Positions 2,418 through 19,185 of a stretch of DNA of 20,000 nt are shown in pieces. A model generated the notes under the pieces. It was not told where the DNA came from and did no database searches. It was given only the letters and a program-made list of their open reading frames with translations. Positions within the stretch are counted from its first letter, which is position 1, and every line of letters starts with the position of its first letter. This DNA comes from Atractiella rhizophila (lineage: Eukaryota): contig MU271322.1 of assembly GCA_021432655.1 (NCBI GenBank), positions 57,296 to 77,295 on the forward strand, given 5' to 3'. The position numbers and the translations under genes are program-made.

Positions 2418-3846
2418 CTAACCAGACTGATCCCAGCTGTTAAATATTACTCCTTGAACGAGGGAGAAACTCACTCCAGGCTTGAACTTCTTGCCGTACA
2501 CCTTCTCCTGAAACACGTCGTATAAGCTGAGCACACCAGCCCCCGCGACTCCTCTCAGAATATTTGCTGCTCCGCCTCTGAAGAAAGTCTTCATCCCTAT
2601 TCATCCTTCAGTCCTCTTGCAGCGGGGAGGTGAGAAAAGCATGCCTTCCGCCTGGTATATCTTTACAGTGCAATCTATCATGTTTTTATACCTTACCCCG
2701 TCCTGGGTTCAAATAGGTTGGTAAACCATGACTAATAGTGGATGGAAATACATACCTCTGATCCCACTGTCATCATCATCCGCCTTCTTACCGTGTCAAG
2801 AGGGTATGCGAGCAGTCCGGCACTCGTGGTGGCAACCCAACCTATCACGGAGCATGTCTCAGACCTGGAAAAAGACGCTGAGGGAAGTTATTCACCAAGT
2901 AAGAATGATAACACGAAGTTGCCCTCCAGCTTTCCAACCAACATAGTTTCTTTGAGAGTGTCGTATCCTCCGAAGTATGCGCCACGGTAAACGAAGATCC
3001 CGATAACGCTGGGAACAAAGCCTCTATAAAGGCCAGCGACACCTTCCGCTTTAAGCGTCTTCTTGTATACATCTACGAGACCGTTGAACTGCCTCTCGCC
3101 ACCTGAATCAATGCCAAAATAATTATCAGCAAGGCAGAGAACATAAATAGGCAGGAATCGAGCACCTTTCTTCTTCCCATCTGCGGACAATCTTGTTCTA
3201 GCATAGTCGAGAGAATAAACGAAGACACTGCTGGACATTCCTGCCAGTCCTCCGCTCATTACATTTCCATATGCCCGTTTAGCTAAGCCTTCATCTTTCT
3301 TATAGCTGAACATCTGCTTGAACGTATCCTTGAATGCGAAATTGAGCGCTTGCGTCGGGAAGTCTGCAAGCGCAACCAGCTCCATCAACATTGACTAGAG
3401 GGAAAGAATCGATGGTGGAAGCATACACCGAATGCAATTCGTTCCATTTCCTCTCCAAACTACGCAACGAATCAGCTGCTCTCCAGGTAGAAAGGAGAAG
3501 GAAACCCACGAGAGAGAATGCCTTCTTCCCTCGCTACCCTCACGCCGCAATCGATGACCCCTTTGTAAGGTCTGCACACGTCAATGCAAACTCGCCTAAA
3601 AATATGAAAACGCACTTGTCCAATCTTCCTGTTCTTATCAGGTCTCCTTGATTCTGCAACAACAGCTTCACGCGTTCAATTGGCGCTGCTCCCGTCTTCG
3701 AAATGACCGCCGCGGTACCTCCCATGGTCAGATCAACTATTACATGAGTTAGCAGGTTAGTCTTGGGAAACGAGTTTTAGGATGAATGACGAACCGAAGA
3801 AATTCTTGACGTTAGCCTCCTTCTTGACAGGTGTTGAAGCGCTCAT
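2418..3846 (-). CDS. AAC: Mitochondrial ADP/ATP carrier (adenine nucleotide translocase), about 9 introns
   Basis: Spliced product [47 protein letters not shown]...[23 protein letters not shown]...[10 protein letters not shown]...GLYRGF...[13 protein letters not shown]...[17 protein letters not shown]...KKFKPGSG*. Contains the RRRMMM AAC signature and carrier Px[DE]xx[KR] motifs. Includes GC-AG intron 2597-2644 and last intron 2427-2474. Confidence 0.97.
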
Positions 3847-3972: not shown

Positions 3973-5861
3973 GTTGAAATTTTCCATTTTTGTCACGCGT
4001 CATGCACAAAGCGCACGACCCATCCCGCTTTCCGCCAATTGTCGGGTCATACCTCCAGGGAGCCAGCACGTAACTTGTGTTTGGACAGGCAGGAGCGGTC
4101 CGTCGGGGGAAGCCAGGAGTCCTTCCGTGTTTCCTTGCATATGCTCTTGCATTCAGAATATTCAGAGTTGCACTTCCACGAATGCCAAGTTGCGAGTCAG
4201 TCGGCGCCGACATGTCAGAAAGCGCTGCATGAGCTCGATGAGCTCCTAAGTTATCAAACGTTCAAATGACGCAAGGAGCGCATCATTATCAAGGATTCAC
4301 GGATCGGGTCCTTGCAAGTGCAACGATATGAAGATTGCAACCTGTGCCCAGAGCGCTTTAAGTCAAATTTTGCCAACAGCGTTTTCATACACCGGCAACG
4401 AATTTCCAGCAACATTGTGCGTGAATCTGCATTTTGCGTTCGCATTCGCAAACGTATGATCATCCTCCTTAAATCTTGAACGAAATTAAACATCGTTGCG
4501 GGAAACCCTCGAATTCGGACGAATTCGAACTTTGACGACATCTCGGCGTCTTCCTGTTCTGGAAGTTTTGACACACGTCTCGACTCTCTCGAGTGTTTTT
4601 GATTATTGATTTATCAGTTTTGTCTTCCTTAATATTACTGCGCACTCTGACATGCAACTTGGAATATCACATCAATCGTCTCAGCCGTGTATGCGACAGA
4701 TTGACAGGTTCTCTTCTTCCTGCCTTTTATACTTTTCGCATTAAAGGCACTCCCATGCGCTTGCGCTTCTACCGCGATAGATCTTCATCGATAGTGTCAG
4801 TAGTAGATTCCAGCTTTTAAAAAATAATTATAGAGGTATACTTACTCGAATGAGAGGAGAACTTGAATGCCTCGGTCTGTGTTCATTAACCATCTTCAAT
4901 TCTGCTGAGTCTGATTTCTGAAATACTGAACAAACGTTTGCTGGGCTAGCAATAATGCTGTCTTTAAAGTATTTTTCATTTATGCTTATTCATTACATAC
5001 ATCGTTTCTTGCGTATTCCTAGCAAGGCCTTGCGTCCACAGGCCTAAGAGTTAAACAATTTAAATGGACTGTTTAGGCTAGCCACATGACGCTAGTCAGC
5101 TTAAAACAACGATTTTCAAACAGTTTTATAACGATAGGCAAAAGAGGCTCAGGCAAAATGATACGCCACGGATAACTCGACAACTAATACATTGTGTCAT
5201 TTGCAACAGCATATTCCGCCATTTGTTTGACTAGGTTCGATTTCATTAAACTGAGGAAACTCTTTCTAAAGCGGCTCAATGTAGTCCTCAACGTGATAGA
5301 TTTCATCATTCTCACTGCCCGTCGCTCACACTGTGCAGCTGACCTTGCACCACACCGTTTCGTGTTCCGTGGGTTAGGGTCTGCGTGTCAAAACCTGGCA
5401 GCAGTCTCGCGTATACACACGGGCTCTAGGTATTCACGAGCGCAGTGACGCGTTGCAACTACATCTGGTTGACATCCAGTTGTTTCCAGTCTGCTTACAC
5501 GCTTGTCCTTTCCACCTTTTTCCCGGTTGACATTTTGTCGCATATTCTTCACGGATATAGGATACCGATTGCAAATGTGTCTCGAGGCTGATTGTAATGC
5601 ACCCTCACGGAGGGAGATGGTGGCTTACGCAAGCCCGGGCCCCTTACGCCTACTTAGAGGAGTGGTACGCAGACAGTCAGCAGGTAATGGCTTTGGAGGT
5701 GGTGTCTGACAAGGGCTTGACGTAAGCTCCGTCTTCTCCTGTGGTCACTTTGTCACTCAAATCTTCAGCTTCATCGTCGATTTAAAAGTCCGGAAGTGTG
5801 CCTTCATATCCCTTCATCTTACTTTCTTAGACTTTTCACAAGAGTTGTTACTAGAGTTACG

Positions 5862-6796
5862 ATGGGCAAATCATACGCTGTTACCGGGTCCGCTCGCGGT
5901 TTGGGTCTAGCATGGGTTCTAAAGCTCTCGTCAGACCCCTCCAACGTCGTCTTTGCACTCGCTCGAAACACAAATAAAGCGGAAAAACTTATTGCAATTG
6001 CGAAGGAGAGACAAAATGTGGTTGTGGTGCAGGCGGACACTTCAGTCAGGGAAGAGATTGAGAGAGCGGTGGAGGAGGTGAAAGGCAAATTCGGAGAGAA
6101 GGGTTTGGACGTTCTTGTCAATAAGTAAGATCTGGCCATTGCTTCTAGCGTATGGTTGCTCATCGACAATGAACGTAACAGCGCCGGGATCGCGCAGACC
6201 GCGGGACTCAAAGGTCACCCAGCACAAGTTCCGTTCACTTCGATAGGAGCCGACGAGTTTACCGAGCTAGTGCGTTATTCTCTGTCGTTGTTCCTTCTCA
6301 TAGGATAACGATTTTCATAACAGTTTCGAGTAAATACAGTCGGCCCCATCTTGACAACTGAACTCTTTCTGCCGCTCCTACGCGAGGGAACTGACAAGAA
6401 GATAGTAGTAATCAGCTCAGACTTGGGCTTGCAAAATACCATCAATCCTGACGATAAGTTTGATGTGGGGAACATAGGGTCATGGGGAGCATATGCGGTA
6501 TCCAAGAACGCGTTGAATATGGCCGTGAAGAAGTTGGCGTTGGAGCTGAGGAAGGAGGGTTTTGTATTCGGGCTCTTTAACGTGAGCCTTCACCTAGTCC
6601 TAGCCCTTCTGTTTTGAACCCACCGCTAACTGGGATTGGATAGCCTGGATGGGTGCGAACCGACATGGGAGGAAGCCAAGCTCACCTTTCCGCGGAAGAA
6701 AGTGTTGACAAGATGCAACAGAAAATGGAACTGTTGAAACAGGAAGATTCAGCCGTATTTTGGGACGTTGCTGGCCGTGTCGACGGACTATGTTGA
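5862..6796 (+). CDS. Short-chain dehydrogenase/reductase, CsgA/C-factor (sniffer-like) type
   Basis: TGSARGLG Rossmann motif, DVLVNNAG across intron 6125-6181, further introns 6270-6323 and 6582-6643, catalytic YAVSK, and PGWVRTDMGG C-terminal motif. TGA at 6794-6796. Confidence 0.93.
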
Positions 6797-10056: not shown

Positions 10057-11046
10057 TTACTCCGGATCACCAGCAGCAATGTTGGCCTTGGGGTTGTGGA
10101 AGAGGGACCTAAAATCACGGCAATGTCAGCACTAGTACTTCCTAGAACAAGAAGAAGTGACGCACTGGTTGCCCCATGGGAATTCCTTGTTCCTGATGTT
10201 CATGTACGGATACACGATCCTCTCTGGCTCCTCACCTCCATTCAGCTCAACAAGATGGGCGTGATGAGCGCTAAATCCCATTTAATGGGACTTTCAGCTG
10301 AGGTGGAAACAAAACCTACTGCTCCTCCTTCTCAATTCGCTCAAAGTTAAGCCACGCGAGAGCGACGGAAGGGATGGCAACAAAGAAGGTGATCTTGCGC
10401 CAGAGGTCGGTCGTTTTCTCGGCATGGTGGGAGATAGCTTCCTCGTTCTGTTCCCAGGAGCAGGTGGTCAGTATCTAGTACAGACTTTATAGGTCCTTCA
10501 TTGCTATCCGTCTACTAATGTCTAAACCACTTGGTGAAAGTGCCTGATAATATACGAGAAAACGACGAATCATCCTTCCCAGGTCACAATATTCTCCCCG
10601 GCGAAGTTCCGTCTCAACACCAGCCTGCGAGAACTCTTTCGTGCTCCATAGACTGAGCATAAAGGTTGAACAGCAGCTCACGATGTAATGTAACGAGGCC
10701 ATGATACACTGATTGGGAGTAAATTGTCCCAGACAACACGAAAGAGCTCGGAGAGAGATGATATTTTCACTTTCTCAAGTCCTGCAAACCGTAGTTCATC
10801 ATGTTCGGACACAGCGAGCAACTAAAAGCTCATGCATCTACAGAAGGGTCTCAAATGGGGAAAGGGCAGCTTCACAACCATTTTCCATTCACAATGCATC
10901 ACATCCGACGACCGACAACTTTAACTCACCTTGAGGTAGTTTTGGGCCTTTTCCACGCTCTTGGCGGCAATTCCTCTTCTCTGAGAGACCTGCCTCAGCG
11001 TAACTGAGTTCCTCGCTGCAATCCTTAGTGCTCTCTGGGAAAACAT
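10057..11046 (-). CDS. COX13: Cytochrome c oxidase subunit VIa (mitochondrial precursor)
   Basis: Arg/Ser-rich presequence MFSQRALRIAARNS..., intron 10448-10929, then NEEAISHHAEKTTDLWRKITFFVAIP...YPYMNIRNKEFPWGNQSLFHNPKAN...*. HA..T..LW.KI and YMNIR.K.FPWG..SLFHNP are COX6A hallmarks. Confidence 0.95.
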
Positions 11047-11180: not shown

Positions 11181-13503
11181 ATGTCAGTCACGTCTTCAAC
11201 TCCAGGCTGGAAATTAGGTCACCCGCCATTTCACGACGAAATTGCTGGAGGAGACAATGCGTTACCACCCAACGGTTTAGAATTGGTGCAAGCTCACTGG
11301 TTCGTTAGGCATGGAGAGAGGACACGTGAGTATCTGTCCATTTAGAGTCTTGGGAAATGTCAGACCTTCTTTAAAGTCGACGAGGAAACACTGTCTTTTT
11401 AGAGGACCCGTGTACAAGCTTTCAGGCAAGTAGGTACGGAGCTAATTAGTTTTCAAGAATATACAACCCAAGGCGAAAGATACAGCCTGATGCCGACGTT
11501 CTAGAACGTTTGTGAGGGATGTTATTGATATCACATCTCGGCCAGCTGTATTTCGGCAGTTGCCTTGAATTCCTTTTACAACCTTCTTACATCTCCTATC
11601 ATTCCTACATACGAGCAAAGCTTTGTTTAAATTTGCGGCCTCAAATCTGTTGTAGAAAGATTTTTTAAAATTTTGCGATAAGTACCACAACATGTCAGGT
11701 CCACGTCTTCATGCCTTGTGCATACTTTCTGATGAGTTGTGGACCGTTACAGTTGTGGAAGAAAGATGAATACCGATTTCAGAGTTGAAGCCCAGGTGAA
11801 AATCGACTAACCTTCGACAGAAGGTGAAAGATTTTCCTGATTCTGGAACTTCTTAGTTAAACTTCGGACATCTCTTTGCTTTCTCGTCTTGAGTTGCTGG
11901 GAAAGATGTGAAAAAGGAAGCGCGCTGATGTTATTTTTTCGCATGAAAAGCCGTACGACCTCGACCTCTCCTCGCCTATCGAGCAGGCCTTCCTCAGCGA
12001 TACAACCTTTGTCATCTTGGCCGCAAATTCCATGCAGCAGTATTAGATTGGGACGAGAGTGGTGAGAATGGTTCAGTGGCTGTAGGTCCGTTCCTTGACT
12101 GCTCCTGGATCCTCCAGCGAAACATGATCCTAACAGGTCCGGACAAACATAGGTGCAAGGATACCAGCCAATCCAACGACTGGTGGGACGACAAGATGAA
12201 AGCGGAGGGAACAACTCCCGCATTGGTGACGAGGGAGAATGGTGTGCTATGCCTTGAACTCCCGCATTTCGGCGACGCTAACTGCGACTGGCATTGAAGC
12301 CATTGGGGCGAATTGACAGATGTCGGACGGATGAGCACTCGCCGCTTGGGAGAGGCCTTACGAAAGCTCTATGTCGATGAATTAGGCTTTCTGCCACCAG
12401 CAATTTCGGACGAGGGGATAGTAACCTTTCGCTCGACAGTGCGTGTTCGACACTCCTGTCTCATACCCAGTCTGACAGACTGAAATAGCCTATGCCTCGA
12501 ACGATAGAGTCTCTCCAACAGATTATCCGCGGCTTAGTCCCACATGAGCGTCAAGTGGAGGCGGGTTCGAGTTGGATTCCAAAAGTAGTCGTTCGGTATG
12601 TCTGAGACAATGTCCTCCTCATTCGAGAATATGGTGGCCGACGAATCGAGTTAGAGATCCGATGGAAGAAAGTTTATATCCGAATACCATCTGCGCAAAA
12701 CTAAGGAAAATGGAGAGCATGTATGCAAGCGCGGCTGCTCAGAAATGGGAACCTGAGCTAGCAAAGCTCGATGACAAGATCGCTAAATATACGGAAGGGT
12801 ATGTGCAGCCTCCTCTCCCTCAACACCTAATGACGTCGTCAATAGCCCGCTTCGAATTGACTCGTCACCTCGAGCATCAGGTGTGTTGGACACCATGGCT
12901 TGCTGCCGAGCACACGGCCTTCCCGTTCCTCCAGAATTCGAAGATCCCGTCATCCTTGAAACACTGGAGCGAGGGATTTCAGAAGAGTGGTTCGGTGGTT
13001 ACGACGCATCCCCAGAGTTCAAGAGGATTTCGATGGGGCGATTAGTTGGGGATCTACAGTCGACCCTTGAGCGAAAGATTGCAAACCGAGAGAAGAGGAC
13101 CGAGGATCCGTTGAAGGTTGCTGTTTACGCGCTGCATGATACAAGTATCTGCGGAATTCTTCACTCTCTTAACTGCTACGACAAAAAATGGCCAGCTTTC
13201 ACCTCTCACATAGGACTTGAACTATTTTCCCGCCCGCATTCATCAACGACTCAATCCTCATTCCTTTCTCATTTCATTCGCCCTTTCTCATCAACACCCG
13301 CGCAGGAATATTTTGTACGGGTACGATTCAACTCTAAACCGCTGAAGATACCAGCTTGTCAACCAAATGGGAAACATCTGGAGGGAAGTCAGGGATATGT
13401 CTGCACTTTTGAAGCCTTCAAAGAGGCCATCAAGGACGTCGTAATGACCGCGGAGGAGTGGGAGAAAGCGTGCTCCGGCGGCGTGGGAGGTCATCGTGGA
13501 TAA
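11181..13503 (+). CDS. Histidine acid phosphatase (branch 2 histidine phosphatase)
   Basis: Exon 1 (11181-11325, missed by the ORF track) encodes ...HWFVRHGERT, and Pro is completed across the 625-nt intron 11326-11950 to give RHGERTP. Downstream motifs: GECHWGELTDVGR, FRSTPMPRTIESLQ, ALHDTS (HD proton donor), WPAFTSHIGLELF. TAA at 13501-13503. Confidence 0.93.
11684..11873 (+). ncRNA. snR191: Box H/ACA snoRNA, snR191/U19 (SNORA74)-like, copy 1 (intron 1 of the phosphatase gene)
   Basis: Hairpin 1 has stems CCACAAC/GTTGTGG and GGTCCAC/GTGGACC with pocket GTCA + GTTAC. Hairpin 2 is closed by CCGA/TCGG with pocket AGAGT + TAGTTA. ACA at 11868-11870 plus 3 nt. The pockets are complementary to LSU rRNA helix 69 GUAACUAUGACUCU. 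Confidence 0.88.
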
Positions 13504-13865
13504 TGGTGGCATCTCAAAAACGACTCTCGTCACGGAGCCCCTTCTTGAGCAGTGCACTGAGTTGCCAGAAACGTCGACGAGCACGTTCCGGTTAGTCAAT
13601 CTAGGTTATGGGATGGACGTTTTGTTTGGACAACGAATGATTTGGTTACGTATTGCAAAGTGTCGTTTCACGTTATGTCAGCATCTCTCGCTCGTCAGGC
13701 ATAAACGGCGCTTTCTACCGCTTCACTACCCCCTCCTCCCTTTTGATACTCCATTTCGCTTCAATACATCGATTCGAAATGACAGATATGTCTCATGTGT
13801 TGGAGCACCGGATTGGTGTTGTCCTCCTTCCTATTGCCCCTGTGGAATTATTTTCTGGCGAGCAC

Positions 13866-14052
13866 ACCACAACATGTCAGGTCCACGTCTTCATGCCTTG
13901 TGCATACTTTCTGATGAGTTGTGGACCGTTACAGTTGTGGAAGATAATTTAAAACCGATTTCAGAGTTGAAGCCCAGGTGAAGTCGAATACCTCTTGAAA
14001 GGGGGAAAGAGCTTCTTGATTCTGGAACTTCTTAGTTAAACTTCGGACATCT
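13866..14052 (+). ncRNA. snR191: Box H/ACA snoRNA, snR191/U19 (SNORA74)-like, copy 2
   Basis: Near-identical to copy 1. Canonical H box AGATAA at 13942-13947 with a 14-nt 3' pocket arm, ACA at 14047-14049. Similarity to copy 1 stops exactly at ACA+3. Confidence 0.9.
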
Positions 14053-14370
14053 TTCATTGTCATCCTCCTTTACCGTTTTCTTTTCGGTTTCCAAAGAAAG
14101 AGACTGGTGACTCATGTGATCATTTTTAGACAGCTTCTCGCTCTGTGTGCTCACCTTTTCAGCTGGATGTTCTGACTGTCGTCTCAGTCTTGTCTCTTCG
14201 ATTTGCAGTGAAGTCCGTCATACGACGGCGTTGTCACTATGTGCACCATTTCTGGTTTCAATAGTTGCGTAGAAATAGCTGATGAGCTTTTCGAAGGCAG
14301 GCTGTCTAAAGCCGTCAGGAAGGATCTGTTTCGAACAGCTCTGTATTGTGTGTGAAGGATACGAGGATAA

Positions 14371-15698
14371 TTACAGCTGTTTAGCTCCTTTTCTGCGAAA
14401 AAGGAGTAGAGCTACTTCTCTTCCAAGCACGAACTCCTCATCCTCATCTTTTATTGACATTACCTCTTGAACTCTCCTAACCACTCTCTCGATGGGATCT
14501 CCGTCTGTGCCCACCAGAGACGGGTTTGCTACCTTCCATCTATGACAAGGTCCAATACTGTGACTGAGTTAGGTACGATCAATCATTCATATCGCGGCCT
14601 CACGTAAAGATGTTTTTCCTCTAAACACCCGTGATCTGCATGAGCAAAGTTACTCCGAATCAAGAAGTACTTGCCAACGTTTTCAGAGTGAACAGAGCTG
14701 GCATGAAGAAGGAGCCATCTTCTAAGTACATCTTTCCTTGTCTGTCAAATGCTCGACGATCTACAGATGTCCACGCTGTACGCAAAGGGAAGTCTTTAGT
14801 GGATGGAATAGAACTAAAGTTGATACCATTCCCTCACCTGAATCTGGATCAGGAAGTGGAAGATTATCGTAAAGTTTATTGATCACGTCGTTCCCTATTA
14901 CTTGGTGAGCAAGCTATTGATTCTATTGGACGGTGCAAGAACCTGGTGCATCGTGGTCTCTAAGCTCGTGCATAGATGCTTTAAGGTCGTCTGCCGTGGG
15001 AGCTGATGGCCACCTCTTCCGATCTAAACAAGAATCAGAGTGGATGTCTCTTACCTAAGGCGTTCTTACCAATGATGTAACCGCTGTAACACCATATGGC
15101 GAGCGTGCCTCCTGGCTTGAGGATGCGCGCCATTTCGTCGTACCAACGCGGTGGAAACCAATGAGCAGCAACCTGAAGTGCACAATGAATCATGCCACAT
15201 CGCTGGAGACGATCTTACAGAGGCCGCGACAAGGTCGACACTCGCGTCTTTAATGAAGGGTACGGCATCAGCGTGTCCCTGGCGAAAACTCAGGTTTGCT
15301 GGTGGACCTGTCGATCTTGCAGTTTCTAGCATGGTCTCGCTAGGATCCACTCCAATCACTTCCCTAAAGCTTCCTGAGAGGTCTATGGCCGCTTGACCCT
15401 ACCACGACAAATTATGGCATATTGTCTTTGGTTTTGGCGAAGCGTACAGGTCCACATCCTAGTCATTACATCGACAACCACTCAAGCTTGAACGTTTGAC
15501 GCACCTATATCGATGGCTACATTGTATTGTCCTCCTGATCGATTGTGAAATTCGAAAATATGATCATACAGTGCTTGAGGTGGCTGCGAAACATCATTGT
15601 TCCATTTTTAGTTCTCGGGGCAGGAAAATGCAAACCTTTGGACGATACTCTGCATAATCGCTGGTGGAATAAGCCTTGGAAGCAAAGGTGTCCGCCAT
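14371..15698 (-). CDS. Class I SAM-dependent methyltransferase (trans-aconitate methyltransferase/Crg1-like)
   Basis: MADTFASKAYSTSDYAEYRP..., motif I DIGCGPG rebuilt via the 11-nt exon 15448-15458, VIGVDPSETML, SVDLVAASVAAHWF, RILKPGGTLAIWCY, and C-terminal TIGPCHRW...DPIE...LLLFRRK. TAA at 14371-14373. Confidence 0.88.
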
Positions 15699-17056: not shown

Positions 17057-17964
17057 GGAGATCTACGATAAGCCAGCCCTATCTCGCCAATTTCGATGGC
17101 TCAAATTCCTACTGTGCCTGTCTTCTACGCATTTTCCCTCGCTCAACTTGAACAATAAATGAAAATATACAATGTCTGTATATCTTCAAGGATAGTGATA
17201 GGGACAGAGGAGTGGGACTGATTCTGCTAAGGTTTCTGAGTTTGAGTTGCCTGATGGGGACTCTATTCGGTCTAGGTAATTTCCAAAAATTCCATTTCTC
17301 TGTTGTCGGATGATATACGAAGCAGACTCCCTCTTTCCAATGGGTAGTGAGTCTCTCCCAGCAGCAGAATTGTGCACTCACTTGGTTTGCCTTACCATGG
17401 CTCAATTTACCTTACGATCATCTTGAATCAGAGCTGGCTTTATCTGCACCCATGGTTCATCACACGCAGTGTTAACGTATTGACGAACGAGAACCGCAGA
17501 ACTTCGCGTCGGTTACAACATTGGTGGCTCCTTCTGGAATCCTTAGTGACTGAATCCTAATATCGTCGATTTCTCAGCCTAGGCAAGAAGCTTCAAATTC
17601 GGCATTGTGCATTCCTGTGGCTGCCTAATCAGATGGGCCTAACGACGAACTTTATGCTGTTGTCCGACAGTCAGTGCTCTACCGCACTTTGGTATGAGAG
17701 ATGCAGGTGGCGATTCCAATGGGTCAAGCACGACGGGGTCTCGGACGGAATGGAGGTGCATCACAGACGAGCTTGTCATCATTTCCTGACACCCAAAACA
17801 TCTTGCTTCTTTAACCCCTTTCAAAGGGTTCAATTAGTAAGTATCTCCGAGAGGAAAGATCAGGAGAAGAAGGGCTAGCTTGTATAAAGCACGAGCGGAG
17901 TAAGGCAACTCAAGGCTAAAGTGTTAGAGGTACTACACCTTCCAACAACTTCAGCATTATCAAA

Positions 17965-19185
17965 ATGATTCTTTCTTCTGAGTCTTCTGCTCCTCTCGTC
18001 GCCCTCACTGGCATCACAGGCCACCAAGGCTCCTCAGTCGCTAACGCTCTCATCCAATCTCCTAAGCCATATCGGCTGCGCGGGTTTTCAAGAGATATTA
18101 CAAAACAAGCGAGCGTGGAATGGAAGGAGAAAGGCGTGCAGATGGTGGCGGTCAACTTGATCGTAGGTAACGAAGCAGCCGTGCGACAAGCGCTGGATGG
18201 GGCTGAGATTGTTTTCGTTTGTTGATATATTTCGTACTCGCTTCCGAAGGAGGAATGACAGGAGGAACAGCTCATGACAAACTTTTGGGAGCACTGGTCT
18301 TCTGAAAGGGTCGGGGTCTCCCTCCTCTTCTCTCCTCCTCAGCCGCAATTCTGATTGCCTCTTTTACTGGAATAAGGAAGTCCAAGAAGTCAAAATGGTC
18401 GTCAGCGTGGCTTACAGCCTGCCAACTCTGAAGTTCTTTGTCTGGTCCGGTCTTCCAAACTACAACAAGATTTCCAATGGCAAATAAACCCACGTCTTAC
18501 ACTTTGACGGGAAGGAAGAAGTTTCTGTTTTTCTCGCGGAGAAGTCTGCAGCTACTGGGATCCCCTACGCAGTAGTGCAGCCAGGAATGTACGCTGTCGT
18601 CCTTGTTGCACCGCTGCAATGGTTAATGGGAATGAGGGAACAGCTACATACACAGCTTCGTTGAAATGGTCAAGCCACGAGACGGCAAATTATCCTTTCC
18701 CACTGCACCAGACACACGAGTCCCGTTCTACGACATTCGAGAGTTTGGTCTCTTCGTGCAAGCTGCAATCGAGCAGCCGGAGAGAACTGGAACAATAATT
18801 AACGTATTCGCAGACGCACGATCACTCAAGGACGCTGCCAAAGACCTTGCAGAAGGCAAGTCTCTCCTTTACTCGCCATCATCTGTGCTCATAATCTTTT
18901 TGATGACAGTGACCGAAAGACCTTTTGAATATGTTCAAGTACCTGTCCGTGAAGGCGAACTCGCAAAGCGCTTCCCGGAACATGTCATGCTTGAAATGGA
19001 AGAGAACCTTGCGGTTTGGGACGAATTTGGCTGTATGTAATTGATATTCCCTTCTCCCACCTTTTCTGATTCTCTTATCCGTAGACTTCGGCACAAAATA
19101 CCCAGAGCGTAATGACGCTATGAAAGATACCAAGCTAACGACTTGGAAAGAATGGGTGACAGAAAACAAAGATCAATTTGCTTGA
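17965..19185 (+). pseudogene. NmrA-like atypical SDR gene interrupted by one in-frame TAA (18485-18487)
   Basis: GITGHQGSSV motif, LMTNFWEH, FVWSGLP...ISNGK*THVLHFDGK. Five intact introns, normal TGA at 19183-19185, TATA-like TATAAA at 17883. Family call is strong; pseudogene status depends on a single base. Confidence 0.75.

Follow-up and report, generated by a model that had tools for sequence, protein, structure and literature searches.

How do two copies of an RNA that is predicted to guide modification of the ribosome come to lie within, and just behind, a gene for an acid phosphatase? The question is raised by a 20-kb stretch of DNA from Atractiella rhizophila (GCA_021432655.1, contig MU271322.1, positions 57,296 to 77,295 of the forward strand). 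The whole of this stretch is referred to here as the window, and all positions are given in its coordinates. It carries two same-strand copies of a sequence of about 190 nucleotides (nt), copy A (11684-11873) and copy B (13866-14052). Both are probably functional, each encoding the fungal equivalent of yeast snR191, an H/ACA small nucleolar RNA (snoRNA) that corresponds to U19/SNORA74 of vertebrates. Copy A is placed by reading frame and protein similarity in an intron of the phosphatase gene, while copy B follows the stop codon of the same gene.

A repeat search of the window found two blocks of direct repeat, one of 117 nt (11684-11800 and 13866-13982; 96% identity) and one of 51 nt (11823-11873 and 14002-14052; 92% identity). 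These are joined by blastn into a single alignment of 190 against 187 nt (90% identity, E 5e-70), and no third copy was found in the window at an E limit of 0.1. When 24 nt of flanking sequence is added on each side, the identity still runs only from 11684/13866 to 11873/14052, which are the ends of the RNA; in both copies the letters UCU after the ACA box mark the end of the identity. The initial annotation had described a direct repeat of about 190 nt with exactly these coordinates, and its proposal of a local duplication agrees with two copies on one strand of one locus.

The identity of the repeated unit was established by a covariance-model scan of the whole window against 4227 Rfam families, a comparison that had been proposed in the initial annotation. 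Both copies align from end to end (model positions 1-273) with RF01263, the snR191 family, which has a gathering score of 46. Copy A scores 46.2 bits (E 8.6e-8) and copy B, below that threshold, 43.9 bits (E 3.4e-7); no other family reaches gathering level in the window, the next-best match being a fragment of an unrelated long non-coding RNA (lncRNA) with an E value of 0.52. In the alignment the conserved pocket letters of the family (UGUCA, GUUAC, GAGU and UAGU) are also the letters of the window. The main departure is an insert of about 99 positions after the hinge, which is absent from both copies.

Folding leads to the same assignment. Separate minimum-energy folds of copy A, of copy B and of their halves give a hairpin-hinge-hairpin-tail arrangement, and the fold of copy A is matched in stability by none of 200 shuffled sequences (z -3.14). 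In both copies a script located hairpin 1, with a lower stem CCACAAC/GUUGUGG, a pocket AUGUCA...GUUACA and an upper stem GGUCCAC/GUGGACC, and the pocket of hairpin 2, AGAGU...UAGUUA. The distance from the first 3' base of the pocket to the AGA of the H box is 14 nt, as is the corresponding distance to ACA in the second hairpin. In H/ACA RNAs the target uridine lies 14-16 nt from the H or ACA box, and the H box has the consensus ANANNA. The hairpin-hinge-hairpin-ACA architecture, the pocket strings and the 14-nt spacing had all been read from the letters in the initial annotation, and each reappears in both copies.

Both pockets are complementary to a motif of helix 69 in large-subunit ribosomal RNA. 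In hairpin 1, GUUAC and GUCA are complementary to GUAAC and UGAC, leaving U-A unpaired (5+4 base pairs); in hairpin 2, UAGUUA and AGAGU are complementary to UAACUA and ACUCU, leaving U-G unpaired (6+5 base pairs). The total complementarity to the 14-nt motif is 9 and 11 base pairs, respectively. According to the available text of two sources, both of which cite Badis 2003, yeast snR191 makes pseudouridines 2258 and 2260 of 25S helix 69 (bioRxiv 10.1101/2024.02.02.578723; PMC8476143), as the initial annotation had it; the first of these sources describes the helix-69 pair as the most conserved pseudouridines in ribosomes. The A. rhizophila RNAs would assemble with the H/ACA proteins (Cbf5, Nop10, Nhp2 and Gar1) into a Cbf5/dyskerin small nucleolar ribonucleoprotein (snoRNP), which would convert two uridines of the helix-69 loop, two positions apart (U2258 and U2260 in yeast), to pseudouridine. 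Hairpin 1 would pick the first uridine (GUAAC-UA-UGAC) and hairpin 2 the second (UAACUA-UG-ACUCU), each being presented to Cbf5.

The locus is represented in four public runs, X3, X4, X5 and X7 (the last a soil metatranscriptome), all of them in the form of assembled contigs. The copy-specific part of copy A is covered by contigs in all four runs, and that of copy B in one of the four (X7, 13915-14046, with no differences). In X7, adapter-like letters follow position 14051, one base short of the end of the repeat, which fits an RNA that ends two or three bases past ACA. The depths of these contigs cannot rank the parts of the gene and are not evidence, either in X3 (about 413-441 over the snoRNA of copy A with its 3' flank, against 534-670 over exons) or in X7 (9-23 for snoRNA contigs against 3-4 for exon contigs). 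Gaps between contigs likewise prove nothing and were not used (X3 has no contig at 11102-11683 or in the interior of copy B, and X4 and X5 have none at 13820-14574).

The pattern of change, both between the two copies and between strains, points to selection on the RNA. Copies A and B differ in 20 alignment columns: 5 of the hinge's 14 columns and 15 of the 41 that make up the tip of hairpin 2. Elsewhere the count is 0 of 135, the invariant columns being those of the entire first hairpin, of the two pockets and the lower stems, and of the tail with ACA. In copy A the hairpin-2 tip is built from GAAAAUC/GAUUUUC and ACCUUC/GAAGGU, and in copy B from GAAGU/GCUUC and CCUCU/AGGGG; the two helices are the same and their letters differ, so that paired changes have preserved the structure. 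Among strains, the X5 contig over 11751-11979, which is divergent, is stated to have 15 substitutions, 14 of them listed. Of these 14, one falls in 123 snoRNA bases and 13 in the next 106, where all three of its indels lie as well (Fisher p 4e-5). The differences of X3 near the copies are all outside them, at 11898 and 11918 for copy A and at 14068, 14074 and 14121 for copy B. The pair is best explained by an old local duplication of an RNA-sized unit, after which no part of it but the hinge and the hairpin-2 tip has been free to change.

A repeat of this kind could in principle be a short mobile element, such as a short interspersed nuclear element (SINE), a miniature inverted-repeat transposable element (MITE) or a retroposed snoRNA, that merely resembles an H/ACA RNA. 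The identity is limited to an RNA-sized unit without homology in the flanks, and retroposition of a mature RNA would give the same picture: the 300-nt flanks of the two copies share no words longer than 7-8 letters. A search for signs of retroposition at both copies found neither an A-run or poly(A) tail nor an abutting target-site duplication, and terminal inverted repeats are absent from both. The 20 kb hold no more than two copies, on the same strand and in one transcription unit, and the covariance match is full-length with the guides intact. Taken together, these observations leave a mobile element with almost no credibility. The initial annotation had named a MITE or SINE, with many dispersed copies and target-site duplications, as the finding that would overturn it; the window holds two copies, with no target-site duplication, poly(A) or flank homology.

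Although otherwise unrelated, the flanks do have one feature in common, an A/T-rich run and GCGA within 22 nt upstream of both copies (11660-11683 and 13842-13865). It may be due to chance, be a remnant of the duplication, or be a common processing or promoter signal.

The gene around copy A encodes a histidine acid phosphatase. Two of its exon translations match Pfam PF00328 (His_Phos_2), and its closest homologues are acid phosphatases of Rhodotorula toruloides (51% identity) and Sporobolomyces salmoneus (49%), both of them Pucciniomycotina; across the three homologues used (P0001-P0003) identity is 49-51%. An exon map from tblastn, combined with joints in the RNA contigs, gives a model of eight exons with an open coding sequence of 1398 nt (465 residues) that is collinear with the homologues. 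The start codon is at 11181, the catalytic RHGERT (11307-11324) is in exon 1, which ends at a GTGAGT donor, and the stop codon is at 13501-13503. Introns 3-7 (47-71 nt) are observed as GT..AG joints in RNA contigs, that from 12438 to 12489 in all four runs. Upstream of these, we infer introns 1 and 2, the 21-nt exon 2 (11405-11425, RPVYKLSG) and position 11987 as the first of exon 3 (LPQRYNLC...) from frame and similarity. The chosen pairing of exons 2 and 3 is the only one that keeps both the frame and the likeness to the homologues in PV..L.G and LP..Y.LC. The resulting intron 2 would be 561 nt long, against 47-79 nt for the other six introns, with copy A placed 258 nt after its donor and 113 nt before its acceptor.

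The predicted donor of this snoRNA-hosting intron (11426-11431) is of the GC type, in a perfect consensus context (CAG/GCAAGT). An alternative exon 2, with an acceptor at 11402 and a GT donor at 11430 (...QDPCTSFQAS...), was rejected for its lower similarity to the homologues; it would also lose the frame in an X5 variant with an extra G after 11403 (one contig, depth about 3), in which the GC-donor model keeps the frame through an AG two bases upstream. Intron 3 (12082-12152) shows two donors (12082 and 12086) and two acceptors (12136 and 12152) in RNA contigs and loose ends. By a frame count, only one of the four combinations, 12082 with 12152, keeps the frame, and the joint from 12081 to 12137 runs into a stop codon.

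The initial annotation had presented the copies as bracketing the gene of a metabolic phosphatase, an unrelated host. The nature of the host stands, as the Pfam match and the acid phosphatase homologues indicate, and copy A is intronic by the predicted splice. The copies do not bracket the whole gene, however, for copy A lies inside it, 3' of exons 1 and 2; only copy B is 3' of the gene. It starts 362 nt past the stop codon, on the same strand, and is followed by a convergent methyltransferase gene.

The stretch between the stop codon and copy B is represented by an X4 contig over 13486-13752 and by a 993-nt X3 contig that covers 13063-13865 and then passes directly into snoRNA sequence. Beyond 13865 this X3 contig has the letters of copy A, as though it went back 2182 positions to 11684. 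A circle or a tandem array was considered for this joint and rejected in favour of assembly through the start of the repeat, where the two copies are identical for 79 nt; a strain in which copy B has been converted to the sequence of copy A is a less likely source.

Several points weigh against the reading of A and B as two working snoRNA genes of a phosphatase host. Copy B is 2.1 bits below the Rfam gathering score, and its fold does not exceed those of shuffled sequences in stability (z -1.23; 23 of 200 shuffled sequences fold as well). Copy A has AGAAAG, with G at position 6, where copy B has the canonical AGAUAA; a perfect ANANNA (AGAUGA) lies 4 nt downstream of it in copy A. The 14-nt helix-69 motif, taken here as the target, is that of the initial annotation and is not a sequence from this genome. 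A metagenome scan for snoRNAs of relatives, in which the guide and stem of hairpin 1 served as a gapped pattern, returned 11 loci, none of which matches an Rfam family at E <= 0.01; these are chance matches and provide no relatives for covariation or synteny. As to the stable RNA that the initial annotation had called for, contigs do lie over both copies, but assembled contigs give neither the strand of an RNA nor its amount or its ends. That the runs are of RNA is a guess for three of the four, although each contains spliced joints of the phosphatase gene. The splice of intron 2 is not seen as a joint in the RNA contigs of the four runs, and contigs of X3 (11844-12072) and X4 (11784-12087) run unspliced from inside copy A, past the predicted acceptor, into exon 3. 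Finally, another X4 contig (11153-11543), of 266 nt and low depth (2.6), leads from 11325 to 11383-11419 and on to 11508 by joints for which the gene model has no explanation. It has 6 and 12 foreign letters at these joints and gives an in-frame stop if read as a splice; it may stem from misassembly, from an unproductive isoform or from a divergent strain.

The lower score (43.9 bits against 46) and weaker fold of copy B, or the G at the sixth H-box position of copy A, could be taken to mean that one of the two is a decaying, non-functional duplicate. Set against this are the complete lack of differences outside the hinge and the hairpin-2 tip, the tip helices kept by paired changes, the copy-specific RNA contigs for both, and the strain differences, which avoid both copies alike. 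Decay of either copy is accordingly held to be improbable.

How the two RNAs are made can be proposed from their positions. Copy A would most likely be freed once the long intron 2 has been spliced out and debranched, exonucleases then trimming it back to the proteins bound to the RNA. Copy B would most likely derive from the same transcription unit, in one of two ways: as part of a 3'-untranslated or read-through RNA that is trimmed from both sides, or as the downstream product of poly(A) cleavage, shielded by the snoRNP. This second route is the one by which, according to the review PMC11028025, SPA RNAs are made.

Alternatively, both copies may have promoters of their own, in which case A would merely be nested in an intron, B would lie between convergent genes, and the phosphatase would be a neighbour rather than a host. 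Most snoRNAs of S. cerevisiae are independently transcribed. The X3 and X4 contigs in which unspliced sequence continues from copy A to exon 3 would agree with read-through of a transcript that starts at A or immediately upstream of it, and the A/T run with GCGA upstream of both copies could be seen in the same light. The shared letters are few, however. The intron that holds copy A has 7-12 times the length of the gene's other introns, as expected of an intron that carries a snoRNA, and the X3 contig is continuous from a coding exon through the 3' stretch into snoRNA sequence. Independent promoters are for these reasons considered unlikely, and a phosphatase transcription unit that gives rise to both RNAs is preferred.

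A further, highly speculative idea, to which we attach little probability, is that A and B form the protective ends of a long RNA of the phosphatase locus, as a fungal counterpart of mammalian SPA RNAs or of sno-lncRNAs such as SLERT, long RNAs with a mature snoRNA at the 5' end or at both ends. By analogy with these, such an RNA would start at copy A, take in the remainder of intron 2 unspliced and then exons 3-8, and finish at copy B. Exons 3-8 are without the exon that carries the catalytic RHG, and have no in-frame start before residue ~127. Bridging contigs connect copy A with exon 3 in two runs, and in one run a contig leads from the final exon along the 3' stretch to snoRNA sequence. 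That only one in four of the observed intron-3 combinations is productive would be in keeping with a locus that mainly makes something other than the enzyme.

Table 1. Positions of the snoRNA copies, their parts and the surrounding genes in the window.
Feature	Position	Strand	Basis or remark
snR191-type H/ACA snoRNA, copy A	11684..11873	+	190 nt; RF01263, fold, pockets, contigs
Copy A, hairpin 1	11684-11759	+	fold
Copy A, hinge	AGAAAG 11760-65; AGAUGA 11764-69	+	letters
Copy A, hairpin 2	11773-11866	+	fold
Copy A, ACA	11868-70	+	letters
snR191-type H/ACA snoRNA, copy B	13866..14052	+	187 nt; RF01263, fold, contig of X7
Copy B, boxes	H box AGAUAA 13942-47; ACA 14047-49	+	letters
Histidine acid phosphatase gene (His_Phos_2)	11181..13503	+	8 exons, 465 residues; Pfam, homologues, tblastn, RNA joints
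Phosphatase exons	11181-11325, 11405-11425, 11987-12081, 12153-12241, 12300-12438, 12489-12595, 12655-12798, 12846-13503	+	
Predicted intron 2	11426..11986	+	561 nt, CAG/GCAAGT ... CAG/; holds copy A
Stretch from stop codon to copy B (3' untranslated or downstream)	13504..13865	+	contigs of X3 and X4
Convergent methyltransferase gene (Methyltransf_25/11)	14660..15398	-	Pfam; four CT..AC joints at 14776-15218; right bound of the copy-B region

The frame of the methyltransferase gene closes near 14660, a position estimated from residue counts. On the other side of the phosphatase gene, and in head-to-head orientation to it, is a minus-strand gene whose open frame begins MFSQRALRIAARN... and whose start codon is near 11046; contigs show a splice junction at 10930. 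The two start codons are about 130 bp apart, and the genes probably share a bidirectional promoter region. Other genes recognised in the window by Pfam encode a mitochondrial carrier (2891-3394, minus strand), a short-chain dehydrogenase (5721-6614) and an NmrA-like protein (17920-19037), none of them related to ribosome biogenesis. No match to a GTPase-family Pfam entry was found among the 59 other long open frames of the window.

Residence in an intron of NOG2, which is typical of fungi but does not define the RNA, is not what is found at this locus, where the host is a His_Phos_2 gene. The position of the NOG2 intron that hosts snR191 is retained in 72% of fungal species, Ustilaginomycotina among them, according to the available part of PMC8476143. 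Host switching of snR191, judged from a 20-kb window against that figure, fits the literature; an additional NOG2-borne copy may be present elsewhere in the genome. The same source, in its available part, reads the pairing of snR191 with NOG2 as co-ordinated expression with a host of ribosome biogenesis, and an intact, duplicated guide in a phosphatase gene would be a counter-example to functional co-regulation of this kind. The locus favours instead the view of ‘constrained drift’ (Hoeppner and Poole 2012), by which adequate expression of the host is all that a snoRNA requires. The movement of snoRNAs from one host to another is well documented, in that work and in the abstract of PMC13736004. 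The notable point is the host; the RNA family itself and the relocation of snoRNAs are already known. The snR191 family and its double guide, including the second hairpin, are retained in a fungus whose host protein is nearest to those of Pucciniomycotina. In practical terms, the analysis provides two snoRNA annotations and a corrected gene model with a predicted long GC-AG intron; knowledge of how such RNAs work is unchanged by the locus.

Among known arrangements, two same-strand snoRNAs that delimit a 2-kb stretch recall sno-lncRNAs, SLERT, SPA RNAs and the hybrid mRNA-snoRNA transcripts of yeast (PMC9351541), and here too contigs join snoRNA to host sequence on both sides. Unlike in sno-lncRNAs and SPA RNAs, the stretch between the copies contains coding exons that are spliced, and it is known from contigs, which do not give RNA ends.

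With vertebrate U19/SNORA74 the A. rhizophila RNAs share the helix-69 targets and the double-guide design, while the host differs. The Rfam clan of snR191 is CL00043; U19, which we take to be its other member, presumably lies in a non-coding host gene. No paper naming both SNORA74 and snR191 was found in the literature searched, and the search on basidiomycete snoRNAs gave nothing relevant among the papers listed.

Comparison with fungal H/ACA families is possible through HACA_42; the available text of a survey reports conservation of its hairpin 1, and of the target of that hairpin, throughout Dikarya at least (Canzler et al. 2018, PMC5824354). The same text predicts the second yeast target in Saccharomycotina and Taphrina only, and reports that most H/ACA snoRNAs seem to be missing from several Pucciniomycotina. 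The hairpin-1 guide is conserved in the A. rhizophila copies as well; in contrast to the prediction for the second target, hairpin 2 is here fully complementary at the neighbouring uridine of helix 69.

Among the nearest known systems are the NOG2-intron homologues of snR191, which in the available text of PMC8476143 include those of the basidiomycetes Ustilago maydis, Malassezia sympodialis and Pseudozyma hubeiensis. Family, intronic location and basidiomycete lineage are shared with these, whereas the host at the present locus has no link to ribosome biogenesis. S. cerevisiae snR191 resembles the A. rhizophila RNAs in the full-length model match, the double-guide layout and the conserved pocket letters, and, for copy A, in being borne by an intron. 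It differs in length, the RNAs described here being about 190 nt long against a model of 273 positions, without the insert of about 99 positions after the hinge. In yeast the RNA is encoded by a single copy in an intron of NOG2, a GTPase gene, whereas here it is encoded by two copies at an acid phosphatase gene, one of them non-intronic.

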